A stretch of 64,000 nucleotides of DNA from Gemmatimonadales bacterium (GCA_039794085.1 JBDIWC010000013.1:20401-84400), one strand, 5' to 3'; numbered from the stretch's first letter, positions 39,216 to 55,669 are shown. Program-made: numbers and translations. Notes: generated by a model not told the origin, from the letters alone.

Positions 39216-39581
39216 ATGGTCATGCAGAAGGTCTTTGCCGCGATCGCGGGAATTCTGCTCGGCGCCGCGGGGATGTGGTTCCTCTCCCGGACTCCGGCCC
39301 CCGACGTGGACGCGGCGGCCGCCGCCCGAGGTGAATCTCTCTACCAGGTCTGCGCCGTCTGCCACGGCCCAACCGGCATGGGCAACCCCGACACCTTCGC
39401 GCCCCGGATCCAGGGACAGCACGCGTGGTACCTGGAAACCCAGTTGCGCAACTTCCGGGCGGGGCTCCGCGGAGTGGACAGCCTCGACCTGAATGGTCAG
39501 GTCATGCGGCCGATGGCCTTGGGTTTACCCAACGAGGAGGCCGTCCGGGACGTCGTGGCCTACATTCAGACGCTGCGATAG
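39216..39581 (+). CDS. Monoheme cytochrome c (c553/c4-like)
   Basis: N-terminal TM; CAVCH; PRIQGQHAWYLETQL; distal Met. Confidence 0.88.
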   Translation: MVMQKVFAAIAGILLGAAGMWFLSRTPAPDVDAAAAARGESLYQVCAVCHGPTGMGNPDTFAPRIQGQHAWYLETQLRNFRAGLRGVDSLDLNGQVMRPMALGLPNEEAVRDVVAYIQTLR

Positions 39582-39647: not shown

Positions 39648-40070
39648 CTACCTGGCCTGGAACTGCTTCTGCTCGACGTCCTCGATGTATGCGGAAAGCG
39701 CCGCCAGTTCCTGGGAACTCCAGGGCAGCGGCTCGGCCTTCATCGGGACGATCATGCAAAACTGAACCATCTGGGCCGCGTCGATCGACTCGAGGTCCGC
39801 CATGCCCTTGGCCATGGCCACCCGGTGCGGATAGGGTTCCTTGAACGTGCTCTTGAACTGTGCTCCGTTCATGTGACAGCTCTCACATGAAACCCCCGCT
39901 TTCCCCAGATTCGAGTCCTTCCAGAGCGTGGCACCCATGGCCACGAGTTCGGCGCGGTCCCCCTCGAACGGCGGCATGTTGGCGGGGCGCATGACCAGCT
40001 CAGGGTCGACACTCCCGCAGCCCGCCAGTACGAGGGCGGTCACCGCTCCATACAGCGTCTTCTTGATCAC
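39648..40070 (-). CDS. Monoheme cytochrome c lipoprotein
   Basis: LAGC lipobox; CESCH; MVQFCMIVPMKA (possible Cys ligand as in SoxA/TsdA-like domains). Confidence 0.8.
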   Translation of the reverse strand: MIKKTLYGAVTALVLAGCGSVDPELVMRPANMPPFEGDRAELVAMGATLWKDSNLGKAGVSCESCHMNGAQFKSTFKEPYPHRVAMAKGMADLESIDAAQMVQFCMIVPMKAEPLPWSSQELAALSAYIEDVEQKQFQAR

Positions 40071-40509
40071 GTTGCTTGCCTCCACGGCCTGATGGTTGTG
40101 AGATATGTCGATCTTCCCCTCGGGGAAAGCCAACACCCATGCCAGATCCTATCCCCATTGCCCCACGAATGCGAGGGGAGACCAATCGGGCCCAGTCCGG
40201 CCCTCGGCCTTCCCCGCACCCTGAAAGACGGCGGGAAGACGAAACTGGATCTCAACCCACCATGGGGCCCCTATGGTTCTTCGTCCTCCCCCTTGTCATC
40301 GTCATCGCGCCTTCCCAGGGTCTCCTCCCGGTTCGAGCGATCCACCGTCGCACCAGGGCTCACGTAAGCCGACGTGGCTCCATGGACATAGACCAACTCC
40401 CCGCCACTGTGGCCCACGGAGTAGCTGGCCGGGAGAACTCCGATGGCTCCCGCCGTGGCCACCACCATCCGCGCAATCTCTCCCACCCGCTCTCGGGCCA
40501 GTCCGACCG

Positions 40510-44942: not shown

Positions 44943-45347
44943 TCACGGAAGCAGCAGAGGTGCTCCCTGAAGCGCGACCGCTCCAAAGTGCCCCCGGTCG
45001 AGCGTGGCAATCGCCCGGGCCCGCAGCCGTTCCGCCACCGCCATCACCACCCCATCCACGAGGCCGAAAGCGAGGTCGCGATGACGGCGCGCCAAGTACC
45101 GGGACCGTGCAACGTCCCGCTCGTCGCCCCAGACCACCTCAAACCGTCCCTCGGCGACGTCACCCAGGAACGCAAGTTCCGCGTCCAGACCCACATGCCG
45201 GAGCAGGAGATAGTCCACTTCAGGGAGGATCGCCCACGGAAGGACCCAGGAGGCGGGGTCCTCCTCGAACAGCGAACGGACCGCCTCGTGGTGGTGGTCG
45301 TCGGCGTCGATCAGGGCCAGAAGTGCGCTCGTGTCCGCCACGATCAT
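44943..45347 (-). CDS. vapC: PIN-domain (VapC family) toxin
   Basis: IVADTSAL, ILPEVDY, LVDGVV, TLDRGHF. Confidence 0.9.
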   Translation of the reverse strand: MIVADTSALLALIDADDHHHEAVRSLFEEDPASWVLPWAILPEVDYLLLRHVGLDAELAFLGDVAEGRFEVVWGDERDVARSRYLARRHRDLAFGLVDGVVMAVAERLRARAIATLDRGHFGAVALQGAPLLLP

Positions 45348-45598
45348 GGATTGCGTGGCATCTCCGCCAGAAGATCTTCCGCCCTCTCGCTCAGATCCCC
45401 CCGGCCGCTTCGCCCAGCGCCCACCGAAGCCGGTCGTGCCCCAGTCCCCTTCCGCGCCACATAGAGCGCCACCGCTTCCCGGACCAGATCGGCCGCACTC
45501 CGCCCCTCGGACCGCGCCAGCGCCTTGAGGCGCCGGTAGTCCGACGAAACGAGATAGACCGTGGTCTTCTCAACTGGGCGTTCGCCGAGTTCATCCAT
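45344..45598 (-). CDS. CopG/RHH antitoxin
   Basis: KTTVYL..LKALARSEGRSAADLVREAV; ATGA overlap with the toxin. Confidence 0.85.
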   Translation of the reverse strand: MDELGERPVEKTTVYLVSSDYRRLKALARSEGRSAADLVREAVALYVARKGTGARPASVGAGRSGRGDLSERAEDLLAEMPRNP

Positions 45599-45605
45599 GG
45601 GTGGT

Positions 45606-45634
45606 ACCATAGCTGGCACGCTCTTGGTTGTCAA
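45606..45634 (-). promoter_or_regulatory. Sigma70 promoter of TA operon 2 (leaderless)
   Basis: TTGACA-17 nt-TATGGT-7 nt-ATG. Confidence 0.75.
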
Positions 45635-45776
45635 CCCGTCCCTGGCCGGACGGCTCTTCTCCCGGCGAGCTTCCCCCCCACCGCCCGGGCGACCTCCCAG
45701 GCTCCCCACTGATATCGACCATCCGGGGCGCACACTCTGAAACGAGGAGGATCACCGGGTTCGCCGGGAGGTGGCC

Positions 45777-46604
45777 TCAGGTCGTCGCTTCCCGACCCAC
45801 TCCGAGTCGCTTCAGCAACAGCGCCACGGCGAGCAACACCCCGAACGCGACCACAATCAGGGGGCCGGTGGGGAGGTCGTACTCGAACGAGACGATCAAC
45901 CCGCCGGCGGACGCGATGAGCCCCGAGGCCCAGGAGAGGAGAGCCAAGGTCCGCTGGTGAGTGGAGAACTGGAAGGCGATGGCGGCGGGAACCACGAGAA
46001 ACGAGAACACGAGCAACACGCCGGCAATCGGGACGCTGAAGGTGATCACGAGACCGAACGAGAGATAGAAGAGGAAGTCCCACCACCGGATGCTCCAGCC
46101 GTGCGACAGGGCGGTTTCCGGGGAGAAGGAGATGGTGAGAAATCGCCGTCGGAGCAGCACATGGAAGAGACCGACCGCGGCGTAGATGATGGCGAGCCGG
46201 ATGATCGTGGGCCAGGTGACCCACAGGATGCTGCCCACCAGAATGTCCTTGATGGCCTCTCCCCCGCGCGGAGACTGATCGGCCACCAGGATCGCGGCCG
46301 CCGAACTCACCACATACACGATACCGATGATCGCCTCCTGGGGAACCCGCCCGTGCTCCTTCGTGCGGCTCAGCGCAAAGAGCGCCGCCCCGAGAGTGGT
46401 GAAACCAAGTGCGTACACAAACGAGGTTGTTGAGTCCGGGGACGCGCCGGCCAGGATGCCCACCGTTGACCCCAGCGCGGCCATCTGTGCCAACGAGAGG
46501 TCCACGAAGATCACCTCCCGCGCGATCACATGCAGCCCCAGGTAGGAGTGAATGGCCACGATCACCAGGCAGGCGGCCAGCGGCGGGAGCATCAGTTCAA
46601 GCAT
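45777..46604 (-). CDS. Metal (Zn/Mn/Fe) ABC transporter permease, ABC-3 family
   Basis: IFVDLSLAQ, DILVGSILW, GVLLVFSFLVVPA, DLPTGPLIV. Confidence 0.9.
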   Translation of the reverse strand: MLELMLPPLAACLVIVAIHSYLGLHVIAREVIFVDLSLAQMAALGSTVGILAGASPDSTTSFVYALGFTTLGAALFALSRTKEHGRVPQEAIIGIVYVVSSAAAILVADQSPRGGEAIKDILVGSILWVTWPTIIRLAIIYAAVGLFHVLLRRRFLTISFSPETALSHGWSIRWWDFLFYLSFGLVITFSVPIAGVLLVFSFLVVPAAIAFQFSTHQRTLALLSWASGLIASAGGLIVSFEYDLPTGPLIVVAFGVLLAVALLLKRLGVGREATT

Positions 46605-46615
46605 GGGCCGAACTC

Positions 46616-47644
46616 CTAGCGATAGACGGCGGTGAGCGCCGACATCCAGAGGTTCATGAGATCGAAGTAGGTGTCGACGCCGGGAGCCCCACCCGTGTTT
46701 TCCGGCACCACCACCGCGGTAGCCCCGGTCCGGGCCGCCACCTGGTCGATCTGGTTCCGGCTGAAGTAGTTCGAGGCAAAGAGCGCCGGGACGTGTTTTT
46801 CCTTCATCAGCGCAATCACTTCCTGGACATGCCCCGGAGTGGGAGGGATTCCCGGCTTGGCCTCAATGAAGGCGATGCAGGGGATCTGGTATCGCCTGGT
46901 GAAATAGGCCCATTCCTTGTGATAGCAGGCCATTTCCTTGCCCTTGAGAACCTTCCCTTGCTGAAGCCACCCGCCGAGCCTTGCCTCCAACGGCTTTCCC
47001 TCGAACGGGGTTCGCGCCAGGAAGGCATCGAGCTGCCCGCTCCTGGTCAGGGTGAACGCGGTGGCGGGCGTGAGGATCCGAACCAGCTCCGGTCCCAGAA
47101 GAGCCTCGAGCACCCGGCGCTCGAAGTCCCCCTGCCGTTCCCTGAAGTACGCGGCATTTTCTGGAGACACCCGCGTGAGACCCACGAGAATATTCCGTGA
47201 GATGAGGATCGCATTGATCGGATCGGTGTGGATGTGGGGATTGCCGGAGACGTGGATGTCCCCCGCCGACCGGCTGACGGAGGTCGGCACCTCCATCAGG
47301 TCGATCCCGGTGTACGCCGTGACATAGCCCGGCCCCCCTTCGGACACCTTCCGGTTGTTCGCGCGGTCGAGCAGGGCCGGCACCCACAGTTCCAGGTCAA
47401 GCCCGGTGGTGACGAACAGGTCCGCGCCCCGAAGGAGCGACACGAAACTTGGCTTCGGTTGGACGAAATGAGGATCCTCGTCTCCCTGAGCGATCGAGAC
47501 AACGGTTCCCCGGTCCCCCACCAGCTCCCGCGCGATCGCTCCGTAGGTGGTGAGACTCGTCACCACCTTCACCGGAGCGGCGGTCGGCGTCGCCGGGCCC
47601 AGGAGGGCCAGGAGGATCGGCAAGAAGAAATGCGTCATGGTCAT
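46616..47644 (-). CDS. Metal ABC transporter substrate-binding protein (ZnuA/TroA cluster A-I)
   Basis: KVVTS, EDPHF, TGLDLE, GNPHI, YHKEWAYF, EAKPGIPPTPGH. Confidence 0.9.
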   Translation of the reverse strand: MTMTHFFLPILLALLGPATPTAAPVKVVTSLTTYGAIARELVGDRGTVVSIAQGDEDPHFVQPKPSFVSLLRGADLFVTTGLDLELWVPALLDRANNRKVSEGGPGYVTAYTGIDLMEVPTSVSRSAGDIHVSGNPHIHTDPINAILISRNILVGLTRVSPENAAYFRERQGDFERRVLEALLGPELVRILTPATAFTLTRSGQLDAFLARTPFEGKPLEARLGGWLQQGKVLKGKEMACYHKEWAYFTRRYQIPCIAFIEAKPGIPPTPGHVQEVIALMKEKHVPALFASNYFSRNQIDQVAARTGATAVVVPENTGGAPGVDTYFDLMNLWMSALTAVYR

Positions 47645-47667: not shown

Positions 47668-49065
47668 TTAGTAGTTCTCGTGCTTGTGGGGACCCATGGC
47701 CCAGACGATCTGAAAGGTCATCTGGTCGAGGTTCTGTCCCGTCATGCGATGCCGTTGCCCCTCCAGCCGGAGGTAGACAAACTCGCTCTGCCACCACGTC
47801 ACGGCCGGCACCACCGCCCATTCGGAATCAAAGACCCCACGCGGCGACTCCGCGTAGTCGTACCGAAGGCCAAGCACCAGGCGCCGGCTGGTCTTGAACT
47901 GCCCCTCCACGAACGTGCCGTAACGCGTGCTCTTGAAACCATCCTCATGGGCCCGGAGCCGGTATCCCTCGGCACGAATGGTCAGATCCTGCCGGGTCCC
48001 CTTGTTGGGGGGACGGTAGGTGAACCGAACGTCCGCGCCGAGGAGACGGCTCTGGAGTTTGGCATCGGAGTTGTTTCCCGCGGCGCCCGTCATGCCCACC
48101 TGGAAATAGCTGCTGCGGGAGACCTGCCAGAAATTGTTGATGTGTCCGAGCACCGTGAGCTGGCGGCTCGCGCCGAAGAGGGGCTCACTCTCGGCGGAGG
48201 TGCCCTGCACGTACACCTCGTGGGTGCCACCGGCGAGACCGACCGGAAGCGCGGTGTAAAGGGAAAGCCCCACTCCGGTGAGTCCTTCCTCGCCGAGAAA
48301 CCGGCGATAGACCAGCGGGTACTCCGTCTCGGGCAGGCTGTGGAGGTGCCACCGGTTGAGCTCCCCCAGTTGCTGCCGGAACTTGCCGGCATCAACCCGG
48401 ATCTGCCCCGGCAACCCGGTATAGTAGATGTACCCCTCCTCCACCCCGACCTCCTCGTCCTCGAACGTCAGAAAGACCTTGGTGTGGGAGTACGGATCGA
48501 GGTCCGACTGAAAGGCGAATTCGAACTCCCGGGCAACCGCATTGTCCCGGGGGGGATTCTCCCTGCGACGGCCGATGAAACGGAGATCCCCTGTGGCGCT
48601 GATCTCCGGGTTCAGAGCATTGAGCCCCCGCTGACGACCGACGAATTGAACGTCCTCCGGCTTCTCCGGGGTCGAAACATCCGGAGTCCCGGCCGCCCCT
48701 TCCGCCGCGGCGACCGCCGCCGCCCGGAGCTCTGCCAGTTCGTCCCGCGCGGTGTCCGCAACCGCCGCCACCCGCGCCCCTGCGGCAGGAGCCTGGCAGC
48801 GAGCGGCTGCGAGCCGGTCGGTGCGGGACGCCAAGCGGCCCAACGCGACCAACACTGAGTCCATGGCAGGGAGCCCCGTGGGACCGGGAAGCCGAAGGGT
48901 TTCACCGGCCGGGCAGCGCCCCGCCTCCAGGGAATCGAGCCGCGCGCTCAGTTGCGAGATGACCACCTGAAGCGAATCAACCCGAACCGGAACCTGGGCA
49001 TGTGCCACGCTCGCGAGCCCTGGAAGCGACCCGACCAGCATGGCGCTCATCCTCATGACTGACAT
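47668..49065 (-). CDS. Outer membrane beta-barrel associated with metal uptake
   Basis: GGAG RBS; signal peptide; coiled N-terminus; NPEISA, EEGY, NRWHLH, C-terminal MGPHKHENY. Confidence 0.75.
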   Translation of the reverse strand: MSVMRMSAMLVGSLPGLASVAHAQVPVRVDSLQVVISQLSARLDSLEAGRCPAGETLRLPGPTGLPAMDSVLVALGRLASRTDRLAAARCQAPAAGARVAAVADTARDELAELRAAAVAAAEGAAGTPDVSTPEKPEDVQFVGRQRGLNALNPEISATGDLRFIGRRRENPPRDNAVAREFEFAFQSDLDPYSHTKVFLTFEDEEVGVEEGYIYYTGLPGQIRVDAGKFRQQLGELNRWHLHSLPETEYPLVYRRFLGEEGLTGVGLSLYTALPVGLAGGTHEVYVQGTSAESEPLFGASRQLTVLGHINNFWQVSRSSYFQVGMTGAAGNNSDAKLQSRLLGADVRFTYRPPNKGTRQDLTIRAEGYRLRAHEDGFKSTRYGTFVEGQFKTSRRLVLGLRYDYAESPRGVFDSEWAVVPAVTWWQSEFVYLRLEGQRHRMTGQNLDQMTFQIVWAMGPHKHENY

Positions 49066-49138
49066 GGCTTTCTCCAACTCCGTGCCTCCTACCCGCACCC
49101 GAGCGGTGCGAGCAATCACCCGCGTCGTGCAAGCAAAC

Positions 49139-49477
49139 TCAGCGGGGCGGGGCGCGAGGGGCTGCGGTGTGGTTCCGAGGATGGGAACGGAGCGGAGGGC
49201 AGCTCCGTGGCGCATGCGAGGTCGGCCGTGCACCGAGTGGCGTTGTCGCAGCAATGGGGGGGGGGGGCGGTCCGGGGTCCTGAAGCGCCATATCCGCGAC
49301 GCAGCGCTCGGCATGGCAGAGCGCGCCCTGCGATTCAACATGGACAATGCGCTGGCGATCCACCTCGTCCAACCCATGGTACAACAGGGCATCGAGCCCG
49401 GACCGGCCAGGCCCGCCAACCAAGAGGATGGCGAGAAGCAGGAGCGATCGCAGCCTCCGATACCGTGTCGGGTCCAT
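49139..49477 (-). CDS. DUF2946-like leader protein with C-terminal RAPP motif
   Basis: Basic + hydrophobic N-terminus, HVE..CHAERC, Pro-rich linker, ends AAPRAPPR*. Confidence 0.7.
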   Translation of the reverse strand: MDPTRYRRLRSLLLLAILLVGGPGRSGLDALLYHGLDEVDRQRIVHVESQGALCHAERCVADMALQDPGPPPPPIAATTPLGARPTSHAPRSCPPLRSHPRNHTAAPRAPPR

Positions 49478-49685
49478 GTCTTTAACATAGGCGGGGGAAG
49501 TGGAATTCAGCAATGCGAACCGACTTCTCCCCCGCAGCGGTCGTCCAACCCTCCCGAAACCGATATCGTGGGCAGTCCCGGCGGGGCTCGAAGGCACCCA
49601 TTCAATGGGCACCGCCACCCGATCTTCACCCCAATCCCCCAAAGGTGCATCTTTGACCACCACCCCGTCACCCGAGGAGCGTCCC

Positions 49686-50468
49686 GTGGCACCGGATTCC
49701 GTCCCCTTGCGCGAAATCACCGGGTATCTCGATACCCTTCTCCGAATCCAGGACACCCCGGACAGCGCCAACGCCCTGAACGGGCTCCAGGTCGAATGCC
49801 GGCGCCCCGTCGGGCGGATCGTCGCGGCCGTGGATGCGTCCCGGGCCACGATCGAGGGACTGGGTCCCCCGCAGCCGGACCAGCCCTGGTCCGACCTGCT
49901 TCTCGTCCACCACGGACTCTTCTGGGACGGGAACCGCCCCCTCACCGGACGACGATACCAGCGCATTCACGGCCTTTTTCTTCGGGATGCCGCTCTCTAC
50001 AGCGCCCACATCCCGCTTGACGTCCATCCCGAGGTGGGAAACAACGCCGTTCTGGCTCACGACTTGGGGCTCACCGATCTCCAACCCTTTGGCCGTTACC
50101 AGGGGATTCACCTGGGCGTCTCCGGCTCCCTCTCGACCAACCGCGACGCACTGGCGCGCACGCTCGAGTCCCACCTCCACACGCGGGTTCACGTCATCCC
50201 CGGGGGACCGGCTGAGCTCCGCAGGGTGGCCATCGTGACGGGCGCTGCTGCGGGCTACGTGGACGAAGCCCGCGCCTCCGGCTGCGACACCCTGATCACC
50301 GGCGAGGGAATGCACCACACCCACTTTGATGCGATGGAGGCGGGGGTCAACGTCCTCTTCGCCGGCCACTATGCCACGGAACAGGTGGGAGTGAAGGCGC
50401 TGGCGGAGCGGTTGTCGAACCACACCGGGATTCCCTGGACCTTCCACGACCACCCCACCGGCCTCTGA
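49686..50468 (+). CDS. Nif3-like dinuclear metal centre protein (YbgI family)
   Basis: GAGGAG RBS; NGLQVE, LVHHGLFW, HIPLDVHPEVGNN, ITGE, AGHYATE. Confidence 0.92.
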   Translation: MAPDSVPLREITGYLDTLLRIQDTPDSANALNGLQVECRRPVGRIVAAVDASRATIEGLGPPQPDQPWSDLLLVHHGLFWDGNRPLTGRRYQRIHGLFLRDAALYSAHIPLDVHPEVGNNAVLAHDLGLTDLQPFGRYQGIHLGVSGSLSTNRDALARTLESHLHTRVHVIPGGPAELRRVAIVTGAAAGYVDEARASGCDTLITGEGMHHTHFDAMEAGVNVLFAGHYATEQVGVKALAERLSNHTGIPWTFHDHPTGL

Positions 50469-55010: not shown

Positions 55011-55415
55011 TCAGGGACTCGAGAGCAGTCGGAAGCCCGCCTCCACGAAGTCGTCGTCGAACGCGAACGCGTCGGCAATGCCTTCGCCTGCCATCACCAC
55101 AAAGCTGGTGCAGTCCACCAGACTCACTCGGCGCCGGTCCATGTGCATCAACCGGTGCATCGCTCGATCATGCAGGGGTTCCGTAACCCAGCGAACGTCG
55201 AGCAAGGGGACCACCGCCCGATGCAGGTCGCTCACGGCGGACATGCCAATCCGCCGTTGTAGAAGTGCGATACTCTCCAGCAGAACGTAGTTCGTCGTGA
55301 CGAGACGCACCTCGCGGGTCACCAGTTCCTGGAAGAGTTCTGTGGCAGACGGGTGCACCACCTCGGTCCGCACCAGCAGCGCGTAGAGAGCCGACGTGTC
55401 GACAAAGACCGTCAT
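55011..55415 (-). CDS. vapC: PIN-domain (VapC family) toxin
   Basis: VFVDTSAL, TTNYVLLE, SLVDCTSF, FAFDDDF. Confidence 0.92.
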   Translation of the reverse strand: MTVFVDTSALYALLVRTEVVHPSATELFQELVTREVRLVTTNYVLLESIALLQRRIGMSAVSDLHRAVVPLLDVRWVTEPLHDRAMHRLMHMDRRRVSLVDCTSFVVMAGEGIADAFAFDDDFVEAGFRLLSSP

Positions 55416-55669
55416 TCGCCATACCCGGTATCCAGAAACTCGTCATGCCGCCGCGCAACATCGGACGATTCGGCCCGATCGGCATACTTGCCCAGGATGC
55501 TCCGGACCTCCCGGACACGATCGGCCCGGGACGGGGCTGCGTCGACTCCCGCCAGATGCCCCGTCACGCATCGCCGAACCGCCTCGGCCAGGGAAATACC
55601 CCGCTCCTGAGCCCACGACTTGAGCCTGCGGTGTTGAGCCTCCGTGAGCTGCACTTGGGTCCGAATCAT
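55412..55669 (-). CDS. CopG/RHH antitoxin
   Basis: MIRTQVQLT..GISLAEAVRRCV; SDVARRHDEFL. Confidence 0.88.
   Translation of the reverse strand: MIRTQVQLTEAQHRRLKSWAQERGISLAEAVRRCVTGHLAGVDAAPSRADRVREVRSILGKYADRAESSDVARRHDEFLDTGYGE

Follow-up and report, generated by a model that had tools for sequence, protein, structure and literature searches.

Known Arrest Leaders and the Leader of the Gemmatimonadales Operon

Peptides ending in RAPP arrest the ribosome with two prolines in the P and A sites, and arrest by RAPP and RGPP has been described as robust, in vitro for CruR (PMC12992588). CruR (Bp2923) of Bordetella pertussis is the first gene of a metal-import operon and carries an export signal, a CXXC motif at residues 90–93, and RAPP at residues 139–142; C90 to R139 is counted as 48 residues, and an insertion of five residues weakens copper control (PMC9426467). 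Here, we describe a leader of this type in a 64,000-nt stretch of DNA from Gemmatimonadales bacterium (GCA_039794085.1 JBDIWC010000013.1:20401-84400), hereafter the window; published systems are compared on the basis of parts of the cited papers. The leader is a minus-strand open reading frame (ORF; 49477–49139) of 112 aa that ends in PRAPPR*, and 73 nt separate its stop from the ATG (49065) of an outer-membrane barrel gene, which is followed by genes for a ZnuA-family binding protein and an ABC-3 permease. It is very probably a regulatory arrest peptide and probably a metal-sensing one; provided that a metal is sensed, zinc is moderately favored. From its sequence and by analogy, we give about an even chance to the full proposal, in which scarcity of metal, probably of zinc, would let the leader arrest at RAPP the ribosome that translates it, keeping the porin and the importer switched on.

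The leader shares with CruR its position at the head of a metal-import operon, its export signal, its C-terminal RAPP, a first cysteine 48 residues before the arginine, a C-rich 3′ end, and the presence of Rho, which is encoded in its own genome. The two differ in several respects (PMC9426467). The CxxC of CruR is absent from the window leader and from 57 of 84 relatives, which have His-x3-5-Cys and upstream His/Glu residues instead. The target of CruR is a copper TonB receptor, whereas that of the window leader is a predicted plug-less porin with ZnuA and an ABC-3 permease, and the intergenic region is 162 nt long in CruR compared to 73 nt in the window (family median, 75 nt).

Similarities to CutF of Rhodobacter capsulatus were also found. 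As in the CutF-like proteins filtered by PMC9973294, the window leader is shorter than 150 aa, has a signal by hydropathy, a PP no more than 15 residues from its end, a same-strand neighbor within 1 kb, and a Cys/His site. The leader family resembles CutF further in its short intergenic region and, in relatives, in predicted structure that would shield the next ribosome-binding site (RBS). Efflux channels and TonB receptors are among the known downstream neighbors of CutF-like genes (PMC9973294). However, CutF has a PPP end and CxxxC, copper causes it to stall, and the product that it induces is a detoxifying oxidase, whereas the window leader has RAPP and precedes an importer (PMC9973294; bioRxiv 10.1101/2025.02.05.636593). 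Porin and ZnuA neighbors are not named in the text of PMC9973294, its Fig. 6B and File S1 set aside.

The upstream ORF (uORF) survey of Fujiwara et al. (PMC12992588) likewise found that small exported proteins with a RAPP end are encoded before genes for metal homeostasis. Its source table lists RAPP uORFs before “zinc-regulated” outer-membrane receptors; zinc regulation was not tested there, and its main text contains neither “zinc” nor “Gemmatimonad”. In the same table, many actinobacterial RAPP uORFs precede TraR/DksA C4 zinc-finger genes. ApdA/ApdP and SecM have a RAPP/RAGP arrest core, an export signal, and stall-dependent control of the next gene in common with the window leader, but they head sec genes, sense translocation, and have no metal site (PMC12992588). 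CzcI of Cupriavidus metallidurans and CC2720 of Caulobacter (before czrCBA) are DUF2946-like heads of zinc-related RND efflux operons, as are the efflux paralogues described below; they differ from the window leader in serving efflux rather than uptake, and CC2720-26 is activated by Zur (PMC4176598). CzcI lacks a C-terminal proline motif (PMC9973294), and the CzcI model was matched by one of 23 leaders, weakly (E 0.12).

Conservation of the Leader

A single-sequence search with the leader returned just one close relative; orthologues were therefore located via the barrel gene. A total of 110 barrel loci were collected, 30 from a class sample of 151 genomes (68 genomes matched) and the best 80 of 572 confirmed in a genome collection. 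Tallies on the 151-genome sample and on 61 family genomes include genomes marked unpublished (G022, G142, G245, and G247). A leader was defined as an open frame of at least 85 codons with R[AGS]PP no more than 12 residues from the stop. Such a leader lies upstream of the barrel at 86 of the 96 Gemmatimonadota loci with enough upstream DNA, compared to 19 of 488 downstream control windows. The 86 loci take in the window itself, four duplicates, and one frameshifted copy, and the ten negative loci comprise one RPPP variant, one assembly gap, and eight loci without a leader. Among the 84 distinct leaders, the motif is RAPP in 76, RSPP in five, and RGPP in three, and it is followed by one to five residues in all except one (83/84).

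The leader evolves as a protein under purifying selection. Between 16 disjoint close pairs, dN/dS was 0.27 in the leader frame but 1.43 and 1.69 when the frame was shifted; the barrel gave 0.11 and the linker of the leader 0.35. An earlier note on the window had proposed a variant of the CruR/CutF-type leaders with a secretion-like N-terminus, to be checked by its conservation at orthologous loci. A conserved, protein-coding leader of this type is borne out by the counts and ratios above, by a basic N-terminus with hydrophobic residues 12–20, by a hydrophobic 11-mer near the N-terminus in 78 of 82 leaders (hydropathy only), and by the Cys-to-RAPP register of CruR. Re-reading of the sequence also confirmed the coordinates and length of the ORF, its PRAPPR* end, the 73-nt gap, and the TATGTT 6 nt before its ATG.

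In the own genome of the window, a hydrophobic N-terminal segment is present in 4 of 44 open frames ending in RAPP, compared to 0/37 for AAPP, 0/48 for RAPA, 0/40 for GAPP, and 2/59 for RAPG; three of the four RAPP frames are small leaders preceding exported metal-transport genes. A profile built from 23 leaders matched 106 of the 151 phylum genomes and gave 1720 clusters at E 0.001, and R[AGS]PP endings were found in 140 of its best 150 matches.

AlphaFold predicted a helix at residues 3–21 of the leader (pLDDT about 90) and no structure beyond residue 34, with low confidence past the helices and a pTM of 0.34. The underlying alignment (A4) was chosen for H34, H55, and C59, so the invariance of these residues in A4 is circular. 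Pfam and NCBIfam searches returned no match for the leader protein or for the barrel protein.

Several loci depart from this arrangement. In one genus (L024, L025, L028, and L030), the leader is missing, and the porin has its own -10 box about 8 nt before its ATG and a short inverted repeat upstream. Three other leaderless loci (L085, L090, and L093) have in common a 25-nt stretch about 60–130 nt before the porin start, which may be a promoter or an operator. Rfam gave no match in nine loci tested, leader-lacking ones among them. The leaders of L104 and L064 show an apparent frameshift (assembly error or decay). A second family leader lies directly after the permease at ten loci (L039, L046, L051, L071, L077, L079, L083, L105, L108, and L111), and in G099 (L164), such a post-permease leader heads a TonB receptor.

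Putative Metal Site and Its Register to RAPP

The His/Cys/Glu residues of the window leader are H34, H46-V-E48, and C54-H55-A-E-R-C59, followed by a five-proline run. C59 lies 48 residues before R108 of RAPP (R108–P111), and one residue is left before the stop. Because C59 and the first cysteine of the CruR CXXC are both 48 residues before the arginine, the window leader is assigned the CruR-type register. A cysteine at exactly this distance is present in 57 of the 84 leaders and at 46–50 residues in 78. CxxC is found in only 27 of the 84, where its spacing to RAPP is 43–47 residues (45 in 18 of the 27), and not in the window leader, which reads C59-V-A-D. His-x3-5-Cys, in comparison, is present in 80 of the 84.

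Across 82 leaders, His is conserved at H55 in 80, Cys at C59 in 77, Glu at E48 in 68, His at H34 in 61, His at H46 in 53, and Cys at C54 in 31. The family trait is thus one anchored cysteine plus upstream His/Glu, with His-x3-5-Cys as the conserved core. The earlier note had described a CHxxxC ligand set and a poly-proline linker. Both are present in the window, but as local features, because C54 is Cys in only 31 of 82 leaders and a run of four or more prolines occurs in only 2 of 82 linkers; neither is conserved.

PF11162 (DUF2946) does not match the window leader, and no match in its own genome passes the Pfam cut-off. Ten of 23 orthologues match it weakly (best E 6e-4), which ties the leader family to CruR, although the window protein itself fails the Pfam test. 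Judged from its sequence, the window leader is best described as a His-rich variant of the CruR/CutF-type leaders, CruR-like by anatomy and not by DUF2946 score or CXXC.

Downstream Porin, Binding Protein, and Permease

AlphaFold modeling of the barrel protein from a 15-sequence alignment gave an all-beta barrel (pLDDT 78.9), and its best Foldseek matches were porins (TM 0.5–0.67 at about 10% identity), in agreement with the outer-membrane barrel of the earlier note. An alternative 606-aa ORF in the barrel frame (47668–49488), which would span the leader, was rejected as a real gene because the open stretch upstream of the match ranges from 0 to 241 codons in relatives and because the barrel of a close relative is annotated from the ATG equivalent to 49065.

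Of the predicted ligands in the binding protein, H59, H137, and H242 are invariant across 95 orthologues, and E315 is kept in 75 of the 95; H242 aligns with a His in YcdH and 8svc. The protein scores under every NCBIfam equivalog cut-off. In cluster A-I binding proteins, a His3-Glu/Asp set, with His rather than Glu as the third ligand, favors zinc over Mn/Fe. Zinc is our best guess from these His-His-His-Glu ligands, together with the ZnuD-like receptors behind paralogous leaders. The earlier reading of the operon as a metal importer rather than a copper protein was upheld by the porin, ZnuA, and the ABC-3 permease, and the proposed Zn/Mn/Ni/Co range narrows towards zinc.

The canonical ZnuABC operon includes an ATPase gene and a Zur operator; the window operon contains no ATPase gene, and a search for Zur boxes gave no strong match (see below). 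No Walker-A ORF was found downstream on the same strand at any of the 63 loci with 4 kb of downstream sequence. The ABC-3 permease is the single one found in its own genome, in which no clear ZnuC candidate was identified; the best ATPase candidate scores as a heme/corrinoid type, and an ATPase match at that level is present in 61 of 61 family genomes, compared to 45 of 61 for the ABC-3 permease. The permease may borrow an ATPase or work without one. The leader also flags both the barrel, an unnamed porin family, and the ATPase-less ZnuA/ZnuB pair as likely zinc-uptake parts.

Promoter, mRNA Structure, and Possible Coupling to the Porin Gene

In 53 of 82 leaders, TANNNT lies 5–8 nt before an in-frame start; the controls gave 5 of 1147 for internal start codons and 0 of 123 for starts out of frame, and of the 1689 long ORFs in the own genome, just 69 have this register. 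A leaderless mRNA is therefore predicted. Two RNA runs (X1 and X2) consist of contigs assembled from a related strain and are uninformative as to expression and start sites.

The predicted cost of opening the porin's Shine-Dalgarno (SD) sequence averaged 8.0 kcal/mol for a free leader end, compared to 4.3 kcal/mol with the ribosome-covered part removed (78 of the 83 loci with a callable porin start); control values were 6.4 kcal/mol with the leader end of another locus and 5.8 kcal/mol with shuffled ends. At the 78 loci, the pairing partners of the SD concentrate 6–21 nt after the Arg codon. A subgroup of 23 loci was picked for its short spacers and five-residue tails. Here, 161 of 184 cells show pairing between the last leader codons and the SD, a count that rests on our own anchoring at the SD, which favors pairing; 59–101 cells paired when the sequences were slid, and 10 of 5000 partner shuffles reached the observed count. 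One paired column in this subgroup alternates between T-A (nine loci) and A-T (seven loci), and two of the 23 loci use the same nucleotides in a shifted reading frame.

The RBS-sequestering hairpin of the earlier note thus finds a predicted counterpart in relatives, but not in the window, where folding of 49060–49170, a check that the note had proposed, gave z +0.8. The intergenic region of the window alone gave z -2.0, and 7 of 200 shuffles folded equally well. Across relatives, the C/G ratio at synonymous sites is about 3 around RAPP compared to 1.31 in the barrel gene, a bias that would suit anti-SD pairing and the Rho route alike. Rho-dependent termination, as in CruR, fits the window at least as well because of its 11-bp hairpin, its C-rich leader end, and the presence of Rho.

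Paralogous Leaders, Efflux Operons, and Metal Regulators

The 24 genes examined downstream of paralogous leaders encode 15 TonB receptors, eight efflux (TolC-type) channels, and one porin-like protein without a family match. ZnuD is the top NCBIfam model for nine of the 15 TonB receptors. Seven of the eight efflux channels follow same-family leaders (L136, L139, L146, L147, L148, L149, and L154; L168–L174), and the eighth follows a His-only RAPP leader in the own genome (L034, G000:C8:10294-10680), which precedes a CzcCBA-like OMF-MFP-RND operon. The own genome also contains a His/Cys-RAPP paralogue with its own -10 box (L035, G000:C53:20152-20457), which heads a TonB receptor with ZnuD as top model, below the cut-off. 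The predicted polarity of the porin loci, with the SD freed by stalling, recurs weakly at 19 TonB loci (5.7 vs 4.0 kcal/mol).

Two Fur-family proteins score over the cut-off in the own genome, best as Fur and PerR and lower as Zur. Upstream of 84 leaders, a search for consensus Fur/Zur boxes gave no strong match and no AT-rich operator. Both results were counted in favor of zinc, although Zur may still be present.

Proposed Mechanism and Alternative Explanations

In the proposed mechanism, the leader ATG would form the 5′ end of the predicted leaderless mRNA, and the nascent chain would be directed to the Sec translocon by its hydrophobic N-terminus. Given the length of the exit tunnel, a ribosome held at RAPP would leave the His/Cys cluster, 48–73 residues back, beyond the tunnel. 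While stalled, the ribosome would sit over the C-rich last codons; once uncovered, these codons could pair with the porin RBS, as the pairing in many relatives suggests, or load Rho, as in the CruR route. On binding metal, the chain would fold or be pulled, which would end the stall and switch the operon off. This scheme builds on the ORF, its selection as a protein, the conservation of motif and spacing, the gene order, the promoter register, and the pairing potential in relatives, all of which are observed; from them we infer stalling, metal binding, the identity of the metal, and the direction of the switch.

Several findings weigh against this scheme. The porin/importer operon occurs without any leader at eight loci, and the conservation counts measure breadth, not significance, with p-values overstated, because related genomes are not independent. 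SD occlusion in the window is no stronger than with shuffled upstream sequence (13–19 of 20 shuffles were as strong in 10 of 12 settings), its longest Watson-Crick anti-SD run is three, and RNAalifold on the 23 loci recovered only the inner hairpin, the anti-SD helix not being part of the consensus. Some relatives retain only about two ligands within the core window. Among PDB structures, the binding protein matches the Fe/Mn protein YfeA best overall, and all ZnuD scores are far under the cut-off (85–245 vs 950 bits). The same leader family also heads OMF-MFP-CzcA efflux operons, in which TIGR00914 (CusA/CzcA) scored above its cut-off in five of five tested; one of these leaders, L147, carries nearly the signature of the window leader, and the efflux loci are predicted to be switched on by stalling too (7.8 kcal/mol free vs 4.7 kcal/mol stalled, n = 8). 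Therefore, the ligand set alone does not predict an importer switched off by metal, and the equal polarity at importers and pumps implies either that metal acts oppositely on similar peptides or that the signal is not a metal. It is because of this sharing of leader family and polarity that the full zinc model is held at an even chance.

The same switch might respond to Ni, Co, Mn, Fe, or Cu, or to divalent metals broadly, which we consider rather unlikely. A site of His, Cys, and Glu leaves the choice of metal open, about a third of the leaders (27/84) keep CxxC, and CzcA-type pumps, which lie behind paralogues, export several metals; the YfeA match points the same way, as do the His-only CutF-like leaders that precede Ni/Co HupE/UreJ genes (PMC9973294). 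Zinc is nevertheless favored by the His-His-His-Glu ligands of the binding protein, by the ZnuD-like receptors, and by the published pairing of RAPP uORFs with “zinc-regulated” receptors (PMC12992588). A change of direction rather than of metal, in which metal binding induces the stall, expression of the operon increases with metal, and its role is not import under starvation, seems very improbable to us. CutF works in this way, requiring its signal sequence and a short stem-loop region (PMC9973294; bioRxiv 10.1101/2025.02.05.636593); one rule would then cover the efflux paralogues as well, and import is unproven for an operon without an ATPase. On the other hand, a porin with ZnuA and an ABC-3 permease has the anatomy of uptake, TonB receptors are most of the other targets examined, and metal releases the stall of CruR, the prototype RAPP leader of an importer (PMC9426467).

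Metal may also not be the signal. In an arrest peptide of the SecM/ApdP kind, which monitors export or simply couples outer-membrane protein synthesis to the translocon, the His and Cys residues would serve folding, a disulfide, or turnover. All 24 examined downstream genes encode outer-membrane proteins, import and efflux loci have equal predicted polarity, and the hydrophobic segment is nearly constant among the leaders (78/82), as such a peptide would have it; yet those downstream operons that could be typed handle metals, His and Cys are kept at the distance from RAPP seen in CruR, and Cys-dependent copper control has been shown for CruR and CutF (PMC9426467; bioRxiv 10.1101/2025.02.05.636593), so that we regard this explanation as improbable. 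The least probable of the explanations, in our estimate, is an ordinary small secreted or anchored metal-binding protein that acts in trans, with an incidental RAPP. Purifying selection along the whole length, linker included, would suit it. However, proteomes avoid RAPP, which is enriched at the ends of uORFs (PMC12992588), and the leader is always first in its operon, at a fixed spacing, is predicted to be unstructured past residue 34, and is constrained at the nucleotide level at its 3′ end.

If the metal-released stall is correct, a RAPP leader tuned to zinc would add a second metal to those sensed by nascent chains, and would do so in a phylum for which few regulatory data exist. According to the CruR paper, no riboswitch is known for Cu or Zn, and protein leaders may fill this gap (PMC9426467). 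We found no test of a zinc-sensing arrest leader in the literature, subscription journals not covered; in the papers found, the tested cases were all copper ones, and “zinc” is absent from the main texts of PMC9426467, PMC12992588, PMC9973294, and bioRxiv 10.1101/2025.02.05.636593. The large family supplies natural variants with and without CxxC in one register, as well as matched import and efflux loci, and therefore makes two things testable in cell-free systems, namely what governs the choice of metal and what governs the direction of its effect, release of the stall as in CruR or its induction as in CutF. A broader and doubtful possibility is that Gemmatimonadota run much of their zinc economy via nascent peptides rather than Zur: leaderless His/Cys-RAPP leaders would head the porin-importer, ZnuD-like receptors, and CzcCBA pumps, a stalled ribosome would mean gene on in every case, small changes in the ligand set would flip whether zinc releases or tightens the stall, and the importer would work without an ATPase gene of its own.

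Features of the Locus and Neighboring Genes

TABLE 1. Positions of the leader, its predicted elements, and the downstream genes in the window.
Feature	Position	Strand	Basis or remark
Possible -35 hexamer	49508..49513	-	18 nt before -10; weak match, inferred; not called by promoter scan
-10 box TATGTT	49484..49489	-	6 nt before leader ATG; leaderless mRNA predicted
Leader (uORF) peptide, 112 aa, CruR/CutF-like	49139..49477	-	Orthologous loci 86/96; dN/dS 0.27
Hydrophobic signal/anchor segment, residues 12–20	49418..49444	-	Hydropathy; hydrophobic 11-mer in 78/82 leaders; predicted helix
Putative metal site H34, H46, E48, (C54), H55, C59	49301..49378	-	Positional conservation in 82 leaders
RAPP arrest motif, R108–P111	49145..49156	-	RAPP/RSPP/RGPP conservation in 84 distinct leaders
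C-rich, G-poor leader 3′ end (48 C, 21 G)	49139..49230	-	Candidate Rho site and/or anti-SD
Intergenic region, 73 nt	49066..49138	-	11-bp hairpin 49115–49089; AGGAGG 49090–49085; GGAG 49075–49072
Outer-membrane beta-barrel protein (465 aa) with a predicted plug-less porin fold and a His-rich C-terminus	47668..49065	-	AlphaFold, Foldseek
ZnuA-family substrate-binding protein; ligands H59, H137, H242, E315	46616..47644	-	PF01297 E 8.7e-44
ABC-3 (ZnuB-type) permease	45777..46604	-	PF00950 E 8.6e-34; operon without ATPase gene

The gene upstream of the leader is divergent (window 49500–50468, plus strand) and encodes a Nif3/YbgI-like protein with a dinuclear metal center; the promoter region is common to it and the leader. 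Right after the permease, an RHH antitoxin and PIN toxin pair is encoded (44943–45733, minus strand) with its own sigma-70-like promoter (45634–45606), and a second RHH/PIN-like pair was recognized by eye at 55011–55669. Two small exported CxxCH proteins (39648–40136, minus strand; 39216–39581, plus strand), also recognized by eye, are probably c-type cytochromes.

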